From NCBI GenBank assembly GCA_963677895.2, contig CAXXGJ010000006.1:128001-192000 (forward strand): 64,000 bases of DNA, given 5' to 3'. The translations under genes and the position numbers were made by a program. The first letter of the stretch is position 1. Each line of letters begins with the position of its first letter. Below the pieces are notes generated by a model. It did not search any database. It was not told where the DNA came from and worked only from the letters and a program-made list of their open reading frames with translations. Source of the DNA: Treponemataceae bacterium (GTDB lineage: Bacteria; Spirochaetota; Spirochaetia; Treponematales; Rectinemataceae). Shown piece by piece: positions 39,301-45,480 of this stretch.

Positions 39301-39615
39301 GTGAAGGTTGAGTTTAAAAATTCTCAACTCGAAAAACTCTATTCAACCGGACAATCGAAGAAGTACCCAGTAGGCTCGGCTATCGCGACAAAATTCGTGG
39401 CCGTCGTAGCCAGATTGAAAGCCGCTCAAGACATCCACGATCTTTGGAGACTGCCTTCGCTAAACTTCGAACGACTTCATGGTAACCCGAACAGGTATTC
39501 GGCGAGAGTAACGATCAAGTACCGAGTCGAGATGGAAATAGACTGGGAAAACCAGGAGAAAACCATTGGACTTATCGGTATCGTCGAGCTCTCGAGCCAT
39601 TATGGAGGAAGGTGA
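39301..39615 (+). CDS. higB: HigB/RelE-like toxin
   Basis: 104 aa, LNFERLHG...YSARVTIKYR; precedes an HTH antitoxin. Confidence 0.8.
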   Translation: MKVEFKNSQLEKLYSTGQSKKYPVGSAIATKFVAVVARLKAAQDIHDLWRLPSLNFERLHGNPNRYSARVTIKYRVEMEIDWENQEKTIGLIGIVELSSHYGGR

Positions 39616-40721
39616 CTATGGGCGAACTCAAGCCATTCATCAATATCGGACCCGGCATCGTTATAAAGGATGAACTGGAAGCGCTAGGTTGGTCGCAGGA
39701 TGATCTGGCACGCATCATGGGCATGTCACTGAAAGCCGTCAATGAAATCCTTAACGACAAGGTGGCGATAACAGTCGAAACAGCGCGGCTTCTGGGAAAA
39801 GCATTCGGGACATCGGCGGAAATATGGATAAACCTGGATACGGCATATCGACTTCGCCTCCGAGAAGATACCGAGCGCGAACGGGAAGCCGAACGTTATG
39901 CGGCAGTCATGAAGTACATGCCGGTCAGGGAGATGGTCAAGAAAGGATGGCTAGAAACCTACAACTCGTCATCGGAGCTTTTGGAAAAAGCCAAGAATTT
40001 CTGGAATGTTTCCGAGCCTGATTTCTCATTCTTGGGCAAGGCTAAGGAGCCCTGTTTCAGGCGTTCCGACGCTTATGAATTCTACGAGAAATATTACGCC
40101 CTCACCTGGACCCAAAAAGCAAAGGATACTGCTTCAAGTATACATTTGCCGGAATGGGACAGAACCGCGGCCAAAAAGATTGGAGCAAAGCTCGGCAATT
40201 TCTCTCGGCTCGAGAATGGCACCTCGACATTTATACAGGACTTAGAAGTGGCAGGCATAGGGTTTTTCGTACTGAGCCACCTGCAGAAAACGTATCTGGA
40301 CGGAGCGGCGATTTTCGTCGGCGCGAATCCATTCATCGTCTATACTGGCCGCTTCGATCGTTGTGACAATTTCTGGTTTACCGTAGCCCACGAGTTAGCC
40401 CACCTAGTTCTTGGTCACGTGAAGAAGGACGGACAGGAAATCCTTGATGACCTGAAACAGGAAGCCGGAAACGATCAGGAAAAAGCAGCAGATAAACTGG
40501 CTGAAACCTATCTCCACACTGTGGAAATTCTGGAATTTTGCGCGCCTTTTAAAAAGTATCTCTCGCGCGAGAGGATAGAGCGCTGCGCTGAAACAGTCGG
40601 AGTAAGCCCGGGTATTGTGGTTGGAACCTTACAGTATGCGGGTATCCTGCCGTACAAGAACCTAAATAACTATAAAAGACCAATACTCACGGCACTTCCT
40701 GCATCATGCATCAAGGGATAA
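39612..40721 (+). CDS. higA: HigA-type HTH antitoxin fused to an ImmA/IrrE-like metallopeptidase domain
   Basis: PGIVIKDELEALGWSQDDLA...WINL HTH; DNFWFTVAHELAH (HExxH). Confidence 0.85.
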   Translation: MTMGELKPFINIGPGIVIKDELEALGWSQDDLARIMGMSLKAVNEILNDKVAITVETARLLGKAFGTSAEIWINLDTAYRLRLREDTEREREAERYAAVMKYMPVREMVKKGWLETYNSSSELLEKAKNFWNVSEPDFSFLGKAKEPCFRRSDAYEFYEKYYALTWTQKAKDTASSIHLPEWDRTAAKKIGAKLGNFSRLENGTSTFIQDLEVAGIGFFVLSHLQKTYLDGAAIFVGANPFIVYTGRFDRCDNFWFTVAHELAHLVLGHVKKDGQEILDDLKQEAGNDQEKAADKLAETYLHTVEILEFCAPFKKYLSRERIERCAETVGVSPGIVVGTLQYAGILPYKNLNNYKRPILTALPASCIKG

Positions 40722-40723
40722 AC

Positions 40724-41554
40724 CTAGACATCATCAAAAAGCTCTTTTTGGTATTCATATGGTATCGGTAATACACCAACAATAACCCAAGGGTTAGGAG
40801 CTAAAAAATGAAACTGTTGAGTCGTGCCAAGATAAAAATGGAGATCTTTCTGTACAAATGTGTCGAAGTATTTTGCCCGAACTTTTTCCAAGACTTGTCG
40901 ATCATCTATCCCTGGTTCCTTGAAACAATTCCAATACAACGCCCCAATTTCCCAATCGAGTATTTGAAGCTGACAACTACGCCCTCGATCATCTTCAAAT
41001 CTGTAAGAAAAGCTATATGGCAACTTTTTTATTAGCTTGAAGGTTCTTCGCCATTCATTATCGTCAAATAAATCAAGCTGATTATAAAAACCCCTCATTT
41101 CAGCAACTTTAGATTCATCCCACTCTCGTTCTTCACTTTCTGAGATAAAATCTATAACTCTCGTAGGTTTGAATATCGCCAACGAAGTTATGTTCCGCTT
41201 TGCATCAATGATAAGAGCATCCATATTTGTATATACTTTTGCAGTTTTTAAGAGAATTTCTCGGCGTGCATGCCAATTATTCTCAGTACCAATTCTACCT
41301 ACCGGTTTTAATTCTTCAGGATTTATCGGACTATATGATTCTGGTCTTGGATCTTTGGTTCTCCGGTTTGTCTGGCATTCAATCCAATCATATTTGCTAT
41401 ATTGTTCAGCTTCATCCAGCCTTCGAAACGGCACTGGGTATAACCTTACCCAAGAGCCATCCTCCCTGATACCAGCCGTGCATACGGTTTCGCCATACTT
41501 CATCGATAATGTCGGATACGTTTTAACGGTGATTAGGATACGTTCCTTTGACAT
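40724..41554 (-). CDS. Conserved-looking hypothetical protein, partner of the DUF488 gene
   Basis: 276 aa, ITVKTYP...ETVCTAG...WVRLYP, DWEIGALY, FYLGT; GGAG RBS. Confidence 0.7.
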   Translation of the reverse strand: MSKERILITVKTYPTLSMKYGETVCTAGIREDGSWVRLYPVPFRRLDEAEQYSKYDWIECQTNRRTKDPRPESYSPINPEELKPVGRIGTENNWHARREILLKTAKVYTNMDALIIDAKRNITSLAIFKPTRVIDFISESEEREWDESKVAEMRGFYNQLDLFDDNEWRRTFKLIKKLPYSFSYRFEDDRGRSCQLQILDWEIGALYWNCFKEPGIDDRQVLEKVRAKYFDTFVQKDLHFYLGTTQQFHFLAPNPWVIVGVLPIPYEYQKELFDDV

Positions 41555-41566
41555 ACACCAGCTCCG

Positions 41567-42463
41567 TTACAAATTTATTATTTTTATTTTCTCCTCATGC
41601 GTACTTTCAATTGCTTCAGCCACACAGTGCCTATGGCATTGTTCGGGCAAGTGTTCATAGCACGTCAAGGCAACACTCTCTCCCTCCCTAATCCATATAC
41701 GAATCAATTCTAGTGATTCGCTTTTATTTGGAAGAATATTTTTTTTATATTCTTCGAAAAGATGATCATACTCTGCTTGTGTATCAAGATTTTTTCGTTG
41801 ATCGGACGCAATTCCCAAATCAGGCAAATGCTCATACCTGATTCCAACTCCTGCACAAGCCTTAAGCAAGGTATTCTTAGAAAATCCATATTTCCGGCTT
41901 ATTGGATTGCGACGTACATCACAAAGTAGGCTTACGCCACTTCGAATTAAAATATTCAGATACGCTTCCAGGGACAATCCTTCATACCCAATCGTCAGTA
42001 AGCCAGGACACTTTCTTGGTTTCGCTTCTTCGATTCGCTTCAATGCCTTGATATCTGAATGAAGGACCCTCTCCGCTATTTCACTTTTAATCCCGTAGTA
42101 TGGATATTTTCGATACGTTTCTGCAACTAATTCATCACCTCTCAAGCTTGAGTATTTTTGCATAAAACTGCTGATTTTTGTTTTGATATCGGGAGATACC
42201 ATTGTCGATGCCTCAAATCCCGATTGCGTCAATCGCCAATAATGTTCGTCAGGTGACAGCATTCCAGATTCGACCAAATGTCTGCGATCGGCATAGGATG
42301 TGAAGGAAAAGGCACCATACCGATATGGAATAAACTCGTAAAATGCGTTGACATCACACTCCTGGCAACTGAGAAAAAGTAGTTTCTGGAAGTCAAGATT
42401 TCCGACAGGACCATTAGCTGATGCCAACAGTGCCAGCAAGTATTTTTGTCGATGAAATATCAT
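41567..42463 (-). CDS. Winged-helix (Panacea/SocA-like motif) plus DUF488 domain protein
   Basis: N-terminal FQKLLFL...FIPYRYGAFS; C-terminal TIGYEG, DVRRNPISRKYGFSK, LTCYEH...CHR. Confidence 0.8.
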   Translation of the reverse strand: MIFHRQKYLLALLASANGPVGNLDFQKLLFLSCQECDVNAFYEFIPYRYGAFSFTSYADRRHLVESGMLSPDEHYWRLTQSGFEASTMVSPDIKTKISSFMQKYSSLRGDELVAETYRKYPYYGIKSEIAERVLHSDIKALKRIEEAKPRKCPGLLTIGYEGLSLEAYLNILIRSGVSLLCDVRRNPISRKYGFSKNTLLKACAGVGIRYEHLPDLGIASDQRKNLDTQAEYDHLFEEYKKNILPNKSESLELIRIWIREGESVALTCYEHLPEQCHRHCVAEAIESTHEEKIKIINL

Positions 42464-42595: not shown

Positions 42596-42628
42596 GTAAA
42601 GTAAAGGGTCACCATCTCTGGGAGCTCG

Positions 42629-42676
42629 GCATAAAGCATGGCAGAAGCGCGCAACGGGTTGAAGCGGTTGTTCGTA
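42629..42676 (-). other. Truncated attC half-site
   Basis: Minus strand TACGAAC-AACC-GCTTCAACC...GCCATGCTTTATGC parallels the first half of the attC at 43276-43400 and lies just after the DUF1801 stop. Confidence 0.55.
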
Positions 42677-42691
42677 AAATATTATTTCTTT

Positions 42692-43075
42692 CTATATTCG
42701 TCTCAATTCTCCATTATTGATTCTTATGTTTTTGTAATCCCATTGTATGCTTAGTGCTTCATCAAGCCACTTATTAAGTTCGTTTTCGTTTGTTTCTTCA
42801 ATTTTTGTATATACCCTTTCCGCAGCTTTGAATTTCCCGATTGGACTTAGCCCCTTGTTGCTGAAGGATTGTCCACTCCAAAAAAGTAGTGCAATTCCAT
42901 TTTTCTTTTTTGAATATCCGACTATCGGATTTTCGTCTATAAACCATACAGGAGCACCATGGTACATTTTTGATGTAGCGTTCTTCAGTTTTAGATTAAT
43001 CAAACCGCAGAGTTTTATGCAAATGTCTTTCAGGGTGCCTTCAAATTGATTGTTGTATTCTTCAAATTGATCCAT
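42692..43075 (-). CDS. DUF1801 (YdhG-like) protein, probable gene cassette ORF
   Basis: MYHGAPVWF..NPIVGYS...LLFWSGQSF...GKFKAA...WDYKNI; GGAGG RBS before MDQF. Confidence 0.8.
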   Translation of the reverse strand: MDQFEEYNNQFEGTLKDICIKLCGLINLKLKNATSKMYHGAPVWFIDENPIVGYSKKKNGIALLFWSGQSFSNKGLSPIGKFKAAERVYTKIEETNENELNKWLDEALSIQWDYKNIRINNGELRRI

Positions 43076-43275
43076 AATCCTCCGATATCTTGCTTGATCG
43101 AAGCAACATCTTTTATATGCTGGACGTATTTGCGCGCGTAGCATCAGGCTAATAAGTATGATGTCCTTCTTCGTAAAATACTTTTGAATAATCTATTTTC
43201 CATTAATATATTGTAGTTAAAACAAATATAACTCTTTTATACAACATAGCTATTTCAGCTCCATATAGTTGATCC

Positions 43276-43400
43276 GACTAACATAAGCTTAACCTTTAAA
43301 GCCTGGCCCGAGCTACTGCGAGGGATTGGCGTGGTTTGTGCATGTGATTTCTGCACAAACCATGCCAAAAGGCTTTATAAGGTTGAAGCATTTGTTAGGA
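43276..43400 (-). mobile_element. Integron attC recombination site (125 bp)
   Basis: Minus strand: R'' TCCTAAC, L'' GCTTCAACC, central hairpin, L' GGTTAAGC, R' GTTAGTC. L'' has one extra base relative to L'. It begins 7 nt after the RT stop. Confidence 0.8.
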
Positions 43401-43407
43401 TTCTTTT

Positions 43408-44730
43408 TTAAGACATTGCACTCATATCTTGTTCAATATCAAGAATACTCTTGTGTATTAATTTTTTAAATTTGTATTGCGCGTCATCTATATTTTTAAA
43501 CTGAATACCGATATAACTTAGTAGTTTTATTATCATATCGTCAGAATATTCATCATAATTGGGTATATATTTTGATTTTATGCCTTTTTTAGTTATTTCT
43601 TTATATACTCTAGATATCTTTTTAATTTTAAGCTCTTCACATTTATACCTTTTCATCTGTCTATTTATAAAGTGATCTATTGAAAATAATTCTTGAATAT
43701 TTTCTGTTTGTGAAAAAAAGAACATCCATCCATACTTTTTGTTTTCCCAAATAAATCCGGTAATTCTCAAGTTTACTCTAAACTCTAGTTTTTTTGGATT
43801 TTTTTTTGCCTGATGCTTATATATTGTTAGAAGACGTATAATAGATTCTTTGAATTTCCTTTTGCTCTTTAATCGAATTGATACTTTTCTATTTGAAAAA
43901 CAATATCCAAGGTAATCAAACTTATCATGAATTGGTGCAACCTTATACTTATCCCCATCATTAAAGACTAACTTGTATTTTTCAATTTCTTTGAATAATT
44001 TATTTTCTAAATACTTCCTATTATCAAAATTACATAAAATTAAAATATCATCAACGTACCTATAGTACTTAATATTTCTTATCTTTGAGATCTCTTTATC
44101 AAATGGAGTTAGATATACATTTGCAAGAATATTTGCTATAGATAAACCTTGCGGAACTCCTTTATCCCTGACAAAAATATCATCAGCTTTGTAAGCAGAA
44201 TTTGTATTTTTAATAGACGCCATAAGCAATTTTATAACTTCAACTTTTCTAATTTTTGTTTTAACTTGTTTTAATAGTATCTCGTGATCTATGCTTGGGT
44301 AATAATTTTTAACATCTAGCTTAATAAAGCAATTATACTGTAAGTCTTTAATACTTTTTGATATATCTGCAATTTGAGTATGCAGCCTTCTTTTTACTAA
44401 TTGTTCGGTAAATGCACTTTCAAGTATTTCGAATAATGCTCTTAAGACTAATCGATCTCTCAAAGTTGGCTTTTCAACAATTCTTGGACAACTATTGTAG
44501 CCTTTTGAAAGTAATTTTGCTTTATAGACAGTAAAACTATACGTTCCTGCCTTACACTTAGTAATAATTAACTCTGTGTGCAATGCAAAATCACGTCGAA
44601 ACTGATGGCTTGTCATTCCATCAATTCCTGAAGTTGCATTTAATCCAATTTTATCATCAAATATTGATAATAAAGCTTTATTTGTAAATATTTTATTAAA
44701 TTTTTCTGCAGAATTTAACTTAATAGCCAT
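43408..44730 (-). CDS. Reverse transcriptase, UG/Abi defence-associated type (UG17/DRT10-like), about 440 aa
   Basis: GIDG, PTLRDRLV, KLDVKNYYPSIDH, GVPQGLSIANILANVYL, YYRYVDDILI, FDYLGY; start MAIKLN overlaps the SLATT 3' end; no maturase/HNH domain evident. Confidence 0.9.
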   Translation of the reverse strand: MAIKLNSAEKFNKIFTNKALLSIFDDKIGLNATSGIDGMTSHQFRRDFALHTELIITKCKAGTYSFTVYKAKLLSKGYNSCPRIVEKPTLRDRLVLRALFEILESAFTEQLVKRRLHTQIADISKSIKDLQYNCFIKLDVKNYYPSIDHEILLKQVKTKIRKVEVIKLLMASIKNTNSAYKADDIFVRDKGVPQGLSIANILANVYLTPFDKEISKIRNIKYYRYVDDILILCNFDNRKYLENKLFKEIEKYKLVFNDGDKYKVAPIHDKFDYLGYCFSNRKVSIRLKSKRKFKESIIRLLTIYKHQAKKNPKKLEFRVNLRITGFIWENKKYGWMFFFSQTENIQELFSIDHFINRQMKRYKCEELKIKKISRVYKEITKKGIKSKYIPNYDEYSDDMIIKLLSYIGIQFKNIDDAQYKFKKLIHKSILDIEQDMSAMS

Positions 44731-45290
44731 ATAAATATTCCTATCGGGATAACTAAGTAAATCAGAATTATTATTAGCCAAACTACTATATTTCGTATAA
44801 TAAAATAGCTCCATTCAAAAAATGATGGATTTGGAACAGTATTATTCTCAGAAGGATTTGTGGTTTTTCTAAGAAAACACTGAATAATTACTTTTTTATA
44901 ATCATATTCTGAGTGATTTTCAGTTTCCCTAAGCAATTGATCATATTGATCTTCAATATTCGCTGTACTATCATTTCTGTTTTCTGCAGAATAAGCATCA
45001 CTTATTAGTTTCCCGATACTAATATATTGTTCTTTTACTTGTCGGCATTCTTGTTTAAAATCTTTCTGCGATAGTAAAAGCGATACAACTAATACAATAA
45101 TCGAACCGAGCACTGAAAAGGTGTTTCTAATAGAGGAATCAACATTAGAAGGTATGATAGATACAGCAATAAGTAAAATTGAATACCACGGAATCAAGTA
45201 AGTACAGATTTTATAATTGAAATTCAATCTTTTTTCCATATTAATACGTACTTTTCTTGTAATCCACATTCTATCACTTAGCTTATTCAT
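44715..45290 (-). CDS. SLATT-domain membrane effector (SLATT_5-like)
   Basis: MWITRKVRINMEKRL, two TM helices, helical region, Y..LL..TENH...DY, C-terminal TM; GGAG RBS. Confidence 0.8.
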   Translation of the reverse strand: MNKLSDRMWITRKVRINMEKRLNFNYKICTYLIPWYSILLIAVSIIPSNVDSSIRNTFSVLGSIIVLVVSLLLSQKDFKQECRQVKEQYISIGKLISDAYSAENRNDSTANIEDQYDQLLRETENHSEYDYKKVIIQCFLRKTTNPSENNTVPNPSFFEWSYFIIRNIVVWLIIILIYLVIPIGIFIWLLS

Positions 45291-45307
45291 AACTACTCCA
45301 AAAAAAA

Positions 45308-45432
45308 GGGGGAATTCTTATAGGAACACCTTAACAACGCTTCTTGCAAAGCTTATCTCTCGATAAAAGCATTACTGCTTTTTTGAATAGAACACCTACA
45401 ATGTAAGCTGTGTAAACACAAAGAATCCCCCC
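45308..45432 (-). ncRNA. Putative RT-associated structured ncRNA
   Basis: Terminal 12-bp stem GGGGGGAUUCUU/AAGAAUUCCCCC (one G-U) encloses hairpins, two with GNRA loops (GUAA, GAGA), plus duplicated AGCUU...AGGUGUUC motifs; directly upstream of SLATT-RT. Confidence 0.7.
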
Positions 45433-45446
45433 AATAATCACAAAGT

Positions 45447-45480
45447 AATCCTAACAATTATTATACCGTTTATCATAAAC
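45447..45480 (-). other. attI-like site / cassette 5' boundary
   Basis: Minus strand GTTTATGATAAAC-GGTATAAT-AATT-GTTAGGATT. GTTAGGATT is the exact reverse complement of AATCCTAAC at the start of the downstream attC. Confidence 0.6.

Follow-up and report, generated by a model that had tools for sequence, protein, structure and literature searches.

A divergent DRT10 system with a predicted 8-nt repeat template, apparently carried on an integron-type cassette in a Treponemataceae bacterium

A 125-nt element that precedes the genes for SLATT_5 and a UG17 reverse transcriptase (RT) in a Treponemataceae bacterium was analyzed, and the locus as a whole is very probably best explained as an intact DRT10 ncRNA with its template in the 3' loop (Loop B), a (ACCTTAAC)n product, a SLATT effector and carriage on a cassette. 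The window, i.e. the whole stretch of DNA that was analyzed and to which all positions below refer, comprises 64,000 nt (GCA_963677895.2, contig CAXXGJ010000006.1, 128,001-192,000). An earlier note on this DNA had proposed an ncRNA of pseudo-symmetric structure whose halves each bind one RT protomer, with A-B-A' repeats copied from one loop only. This agrees with the published DRT10 mechanism, and the locus can be assigned to DRT10; the general model of the note is the published one, since the DRT10 papers report those features.

According to the available parts of PMC12632851 and 10.64898/2026.06.29.735271, DRT10 systems synthesize protein-primed tandem-repeat cDNA from an A-B-A' template, with two RTs bound to one pseudo-symmetric RNA. 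The 3' Loop B gives the repeats, while the 12-nt Loop A yields a product of ∼10 nt. The linker following the anchor G is a rigid 2 nt, and the product is lost when two bases of the 3' linker are removed.

Three loci served for detailed comparison: L152, the sole close relative with available DNA (RT 66% identical); L076; and L107, which represents Eco3DRT10 and was matched to it by features and not by accession (a 456-aa RT with N197/R371/K385/Y388/S456, and a Loop B equal to the published template). The parts of the locus are as follows (P, pair probability).

45449..45455, minus strand: core site GTTAGGA, perfectly complementary to the inverse core 43400-43394 (TCCTAAC); the crossover point follows G45455
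45308..45432, minus strand: putative DRT10 ncRNA of 125 nt, predicted to form six stem-loops and to leave two loops single-stranded; ends placed by the closing stem, layout matched in L152 and L076
45421..45432, minus strand: 5' strand of SL1 (closing stem, 12 bp), partner 45308-45319; P 0.63-1.0
45409..45420, minus strand: SL2 hairpin, P 0.6-0.7; 4/4 pairs invariant in three sequences
45394..45408, minus strand: SL3, 5' boundary hairpin of Loop A; P about 0.44, plus the grammar parse
45381..45392, minus strand: Loop A, 12 nt, containing UUC-UA-UUC; predicted abortive template
45367..45380, minus strand: SL4, symmetric counterpart of SL1; P 0.92-0.99
45353..45366, minus strand: SL5 hairpin, corresponding to SL2; low probability in the ensemble of the free RNA (P 0.05-0.13), recovered by grammar parsing of the window, L152 and L076
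45339..45352, minus strand: SL6, 5 bp with a GCAA cap, 5' boundary hairpin of Loop B; paired in 15/15 cells
45337-45336, minus strand: 2-nt linker of Loop B, preceding the predicted template
45328..45335, minus strand: predicted template A-B (GUU + AAGGU), predicted cDNA unit ACCTTAAC, by the rules of PMC12632851 and 10.64898/2026.06.29.735271
45325..45327, minus strand: predicted A' realignment segment GUU, 7 nt from its first base to SL1 (repeat length k=3, period 8, tail 7)
45296..45307, minus strand: eight consecutive U following SL1, then GGAG, the putative ribosome-binding site for SLATT, as read from the sequence
44715..45290, minus strand: SLATT_5 membrane effector, 191 aa; PF18160 E 1.1e-31, NF033631 121 bits (cut-off 60), PADLOC RTasSLATT E 9.6e-43
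43408..44730, minus strand: UG17/DRT10 RT, 440 aa; PADLOC RT_UG17 E 4e-131 over 427/429 model positions, runner-up 8.4e-36
43276..43400, minus strand: attC-type site closing the cassette, directly beyond the RT stop; bottom-strand DNA hairpin of -37.8 kcal/mol, z -8.56

Judged by its sequence, the locus is an intact, family-typical DRT10 system, and the element is identified as a DRT10 ncRNA because genes for SLATT_5 and a UG17 RT follow it. The RT most likely starts at the ATG at 44730, as do P0001 and the homologues, and this start overlaps the end of the SLATT gene. The catalytic YVDD is encoded at 44058-44047 (residue 225). Residues N200, R361 and the C-terminal S440 align with N197, R371 and S456 of L107, and both S440 and R361 are nearly invariant in 40 homologues. 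The SL1-contacting residues K385/Y388 of L107 (Eco3) align to R374/K377, with Y376 one column off. A quick tree built from 50 RTs placed the window RT with P0002, P0003, P0004 and L152 (SH-aLRT 100), in an 11-row clade (SH-aLRT 99) apart from the Eco1-like and Eco3-like groups.

Other assignments were rejected. Scores against related families were low (Drt3a 96 of 200 bits, Drt2 72 of 390, retron St85 50 of 235); Drt9 matched at E 2e-18, below UG17, and the RNA has no poly-U template loop. UG17-B was excluded, since its gene order is RT-SLATT. The best match in a PDB sequence search was a group II intron RT, and the copy searched yielded no DRT10 chain. Genome contigs were scanned for homologues with an alignment query, a single-sequence query having found nothing. 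At E<=1e-50, no second match was found in 68 genomes of the family and 400 of the order. A scan of 400 genomes of the phylum gave one match at this threshold (L233); these three sets overlap. The L233 locus has no SLATT match and an unclear RNA, and it was left out of the comparisons.

Judging from its flanking sites, the ncRNA-SLATT-RT unit moves as one integron-type cassette. A GTTAGGA core site is located 23 nt upstream of the ncRNA; the last base of a core site is usually a pyrimidine, here it is A. The cassette (45454-43282, 2173 bp) has a GC content of 28.9%, compared to 33.4% for contig C39 and 56.0% for the genome, and its attC-type site matches members of the C39 array with an identity of up to 92% across 115 nt. 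A regular expression for attC failed to detect the site in the window and matched 1 of 208 loci; a profile was built from the window site and two L152 sites and is therefore clade-specific. At E<=1e-8, 51 attC-type sites were counted in the genome, 45 of them on C39 (G000, 46,421 bp, 33% GC), where they form a 45-site cassette array; single sites occur on C2, C4, C13, C18 and C30. In L152, attC sites flank the corresponding ncRNA-SLATT-RT unit within an array that has five of them, and an attC there ends at the motif seen in the window. Two contigs from runs of other studies, X4 and X9, diverge from the window at 45456/45457. No attC site was found upstream of the window cassette. No match to the integron integrase model TIGR02249 exceeded the cut-off in the 39-contig, 92.8% complete assembly (best 103 of 265 bits).

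Integron cassettes that carry phage-defence genes have been described before (BRiCs; Kieffer et al., 10.1101/2024.07.02.601719, available parts). The window cassette shares with BRiCs a defence system bounded by attC, copies outside an array included. It differs in holding an ncRNA and two genes, and the terms 'reverse transcriptase' and 'SLATT' are absent from the available text of that paper. In the accessible portions of the DRT10 texts PMC12632851, 10.64898/2026.06.29.735271, 10.64898/2026.04.29.721553 and 10.64898/2026.10.08.757509, no statement was found that DRT10 forms an integron cassette and the word 'integron' does not occur, although one clinical paper contains both 'integron' and 'UG17'. 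The locus also illustrates the packing of a whole ncRNA-SLATT-RT system into a single putative cassette.

The stretch 45290-45450 folds beyond chance (z -4.32, 0/200 shuffles as good). All strings quoted in the earlier note were found on the minus strand, including UUC-UA-UUC at 45392-45385 and AAGCA-GUAA-UGCUU at 45380-45367, and the closing stem that it had drawn is present as 12 bp (45432-45421/45319-45308). The grammar parse of the window reads SL1-SL2-SL3-G-Loop A-SL4-SL5-SL6-G-Loop B. On the SL3 side, G45393 (opposite A45409) would be the anchor G, a role assigned via 10.64898/2026.06.29.735271; the anchor G predicted after SL6 is G45338, which faces A45353. Loop A shortens to 11 nt if SL4 gains a sixth pair; it is 12 nt long in 39/63 homologous RNAs. 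The minimum-energy fold of the free RNA (-40.1) and the six-hairpin fold (-36.8) differ in SL5/SL6. Because the former matches neither the short SL6 nor a longer alternative hairpin of half 2, it is homology, together with a presumed binding of the RT, that supports the six-hairpin fold.

Covariation was assessed in three sequences only (window, L152 and L076, the last misaligned in SL3-SL5), since the quality of a 12-RNA MAFFT alignment was insufficient for this purpose. Two-sided changes were seen at 3/12 pairs of SL1 and 2/5 pairs of SL6. The earlier note had proposed folding and covariation in homologues as a check on its structure: the six-hairpin layout recurred in L152 and L076, with SL6 paired in all 15 cells, and the ensemble disfavoured the long half-2 hairpin. 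The 8-U run after SL1, also present in L152 and L076, is possibly the 3' end of the ncRNA or a partial terminator; a terminator scan gave no flag at this position.

The position of the template was examined in homologous RNAs. A total of 211 loci were gathered from genome, viral and metagenome collections, 208 with a strong RT match and 174 with an abutting upstream ORF. The 167 loci with sufficient upstream DNA, together with the window, were parsed with a grammar (closing stem, hairpins, two loops) that is blind to repeats, but forces a G after both boundary hairpins. Parsing succeeded for 147/168 items, and 84 (63 non-redundant) were retained after filtering by energy, by the lengths of the loops and by a short motif in Loop A, so 84/168 were lost to parse failure or filter. 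As a calibration, the parse of L107 returned the published Eco3 Loop B, with its 2-nt linker, 9-nt template, 4-nt A' and 4-nt 3' linker.

At linker lengths of 0, 1, 2 and 3 nt, Loop B contained a repeat of at least 3 nt with a tail of 5 nt or more in 28, 32, 45 and 22 of the 63 RNAs, against 15.2, 13.9, 13.0 (sd 3.3) and 11.7 expected from shuffled loops; kinship among the homologues inflates the significance of this comparison with shuffles, and the contrast is descriptive. The same count for Loop A was 9, 3, 0 and 2 of 63 (shuffled 5.1, 4.0, 2.8 and 1.6). The earlier note had assigned the repeating loop to half 1, and this is not supported at the 2-nt linker, where the repeat occurs in no Loop A and in 45/63 Loops B. 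Two-nt repeats of Loop A at a 1-nt linker were in excess (35/63, shuffled 18.1), mostly owing to one motif common to the Eco1-like group.

In the window, the 18-nt Loop B is parsed as UU / GUU / AAGGU / GUU / CCUAU. The claim that half 2 lacks an A-B-A' pattern is therefore wrong: GUU-AAGGU-GUU lies at 45335-45325, or UGUU-AAGG-UGUU if the boundary is set one base earlier, and such a shift leaves the period intact because the repeat extends to UGUU. The predicted unit ACCTTAAC corresponds to the plus-strand letters 45328-45335. The tail of 7 nt equals that of the Eco3-like L107 (k=4, period 9, tail 7) and matches the seven-nt 3' linker of loop 2 reported in the available part of Chen et al. 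(10.64898/2026.10.08.757509). In L152, both GUU are kept while B and the 3' linker have changed, and Loop B again has k=3, period 8 and tail 7, with the predicted unit ACCTCAAC. We consider it highly likely that the template is in Loop B and that the product is the 8-nt (ACCTTAAC)n.

The motif AGGUGUUC does occur twice, at 45397-45390 and 45331-45324, with a spacing of 66 nt. These copies are not symmetric equivalents in the fold typical of the family: the first comprises a hairpin end, the anchor G and the UU linker, and the second the end of B and A' of the 3'-loop template. The counterpart of AGGU-G-UU of half 1 is AAGC-G-UU (45342-45336). Such an 8-mer recurrence carries little signal, arising in 9.6% of 5000 dinucleotide shuffles and in 8/63 homologous RNAs. 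Pairing of the cDNA with the half-1 copy of AGGUGUUC as a feedback was considered and dropped, the 8-mer repeat being within chance.

Searches for the motifs themselves gave little: Rfam returned only one chance match (E 4.2), viral contigs contained no match to the Loop A pattern, and the template motifs were not found in the available part of the supplement of Tang et al. (PMC12632851). In the genome, the 8-mer unit never occurs in two or more tandem copies and the 5-mer unit in at most two, a count that is uninformative because the predicted product is non-genomic.

By extension from studied homologues, two RT molecules would bind opposite halves of one RNA. The RT at Loop B would prime on its own C-terminal Ser440 and start near G45327, and copying would end at G45335, where 2 nt still separate it from the anchor G45338 that Arg361 would hold. 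The cDNA end AAC would then realign on A' (45327-45325) and the cycle would repeat, yielding long single-stranded (ACCTTAAC)n. A GU at 45329-45328 might act as a cryptic realignment site, interspersing 6-nt units. By analogy, the RT on the 12-nt Loop A of half 1 should give only a short abortive product. During phage infection, the level or state of the cDNA would activate the SLATT membrane effector.

Readings in which Loop A also repeats, or the RNA switches folds, have to be weighed against this one. A DRT10 that makes (ACCTTAAC)n from Loop B and (GAATA)n from Loop A, or which is switched off when an equal-energy long hairpin hides the 3' template, is unlikely overall. Taken by itself, a natural dual template, with an 8-nt repeat from Loop B and the 5-nt (GAATA)n from a half-1 boundary 1-2 nt further upstream than in Eco3 (e.g. 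if the basal G-U of SL3 opens), is quite unlikely. Engineered RNAs with A-B-A' in both loops do yield both products (PMC12632851; 10.64898/2026.06.29.735271, available parts), and the tail counted from the first U of the second UUC (45387) is 6 nt, as long as the 3' linker of loop 1 in the consulted part of 10.64898/2026.10.08.757509. The second UUC thus starts 6 nt before SL4, and a Loop A repeat would need only that shift of 1-2 nt. The excess of 2-base Loop A repeats points the same way, mostly via one motif of related sequences. Loop A is, moreover, identical in L152 and the window; this is explained by Loop A being a conserved scaffold motif of the family. With the 2-nt linker, however, the first UU of UUC-UA-UUC is the linker, which leaves 1 nt of A-A' identity and a tail of 3-4 nt, whereas Eco3, as far as the published account was available, requires 2-3 nt of identity and no longer gives product once two 3' linker bases are deleted. 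None of the 63 Loops A has a repeat of at least 3 nt at linker 2 with a tail of at least 5. In a single X9 contig (depth 6.07) the last C of UUC-UA-UUC, C45385, is replaced, a change that should prevent repeats from Loop A under the mismatch rules of Eco3; the X4 contig has no listed differences within the RNA. No natural two-product DRT10 was found in the available parts of the DRT10 literature (PMC12632851, 10.64898/2026.06.29.735271, 10.64898/2026.04.29.721553, 10.64898/2026.10.08.757509), and this locus would be one if both loops did repeat.

The model of the earlier note, which requires a long half-2 hairpin that sequesters the Loop B template and (GAATA)n repeats from Loop A alone, or else an RNA that switches folds, appears highly improbable. 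The long hairpin (45352-45328) pairs 45352-45344 with 45337-45328 around a 7-nt loop. In isolation it equals the short SL6 in energy in the window (-4.7 and -4.7), and an alternative within 1.5 kcal/mol exists in just 2/64 RNAs, a proximity reached by 17/300 Loop B shuffles. In L152 its register keeps 9/9 pairs, one by a two-sided change. In the ensemble, the long form nevertheless has a probability of 0.01-0.03 unconstrained (short form 0.42-0.45) and 0.05 with the remaining helices fixed (short form 0.94). It falls to 0.00 in L152, at 2.4 kcal/mol worse than the short form, and in L076 it is 1.9 kcal/mol worse with 4/9 pairs broken. A (GAATA)n product from UUC-UA-UUC further requires a zero-length 5' linker; repeats of at least 3 nt at that spacing occur in the 5' loop of homologues at the chance frequency (9/63, 9.0 expected), and a zero-length linker abolished the wild-type repeat in Eco3 according to the accessible published text. 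It also leaves the well-placed, conserved GUU-x-GUU unexplained. It is very unlikely, too, that the cassette is silent or poorly active here, being out of its array with no promoter or having an RNA that misfolds when free. A promoter scan of the minus strand upstream of the ncRNA showed no promoter-like site, the free RNA has competing folds and the assembly has no integron integrase above the cut-off, the last point weakened by its 92.8% completeness. Against this, the RNA and both frames are intact, a TATAAT is present at 45464-45459, and near-identical copies with other upstream neighbours occur in runs of other studies.

With Loop B as the preferred template, the system is a new, divergent DRT10 member whose mechanism has already been described in four preprints; it adds a member, not a concept. 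Its value is that published boundary rules, applied to a distant RT (∼34% identical to Eco3-like), predict an 8-nt repeat and reject a 5-nt one. As judged from the available parts of 10.64898/2026.06.29.735271 and PMC12632851 (Table S2), it shares with the Eco1DRT10 type the order SL1-SL2-SL3-Loop A (12 nt)-SL4-SL5-SL6-Loop B, the G and 2-nt linker ahead of A, and a SLATT_5 gene followed by an RT gene with overlapping ends. It differs in A/A' (GUU, against an ACU-type motif in the Eco1 group), in the separate clade of its RT and in a C-terminal serine where the Eco1 type has tyrosine. With Eco3DRT10 (L107) it has in common the 2-nt 5' linker, the 7-nt tail past the first base of A', the 12-nt Loop A, the C-terminal serine and the N197 and R371 equivalents. 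However, the two RTs are about 34% identical, the window RNA has six stem-loops and Eco3 five, and the predicted units are the 8-nt ACCTTAAC and the 9-nt GAATCATTG. The anchor is A-G here and G-G in Eco3, where, by the published text available, A-G is tolerated. The SLATT-RT order, the tight coupling and the ncRNA upstream of SLATT are shared with UG17-A / UG17-C, as presented in the consulted part of Sanchez-Nieto et al. (10.64898/2026.04.29.721553). Telomerase RNA/TERT likewise combines a template, an alignment segment and a boundary hairpin, and is said in the available part of PMC12632851 to work alike; DRT10 is not a member of that group, being protein-primed, with a 2:1 RT:RNA ratio and no chromosome ends.

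Several additional observations were made on the compared loci. In some Eco1-like loci (e.g. L050, L060 and L063), Loop A resembles Loop B minus one period, with a 2-nt linker, an equal 3-nt A motif and a 7-nt tail, which suggests that the DRT10 halves arose by duplication, with Loop B then gaining the repeat. The RT frame of L076 (2001-3307) stops at 311 aa while the match goes on, so that either the gene is disrupted or the assembly is faulty here; the ncRNA of this locus is intact and has a 2-nt A and a period of 9. DRT10 RTs were also present in archaea-titled records (L029, L049 and L154; Methanobacterium, Bathyarchaeia), L029 and L154 being the same in the tree rows; these may reflect binning or true transfer. 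The genome of L076 contains an integron-integrase-like gene in two pieces (G448:C1:412371-413302; L239 and L240, 196 and 176 bits).

The cassette now lies within a small defence island. Beyond its attC, a DUF1801 gene (42628-43144, minus strand) is followed by the apparent first half of another attC, cut off (weak profile match, E 0.59), and this is probably a second, damaged cassette. Further downstream (40724-42463, minus strand) are two genes matching the PADLOC candidate PDC-M19 (A, DUF488-containing, E 3e-104; B, E 6.5e-110). At the edge of the island (39301-40721, plus strand), a HigB-like toxin gene and an HTH/Peptidase_M78 gene (PD-Lambda-2_B-like, E 1e-45) form, from their domain content, a bacterial toxin-antitoxin or defence pair.
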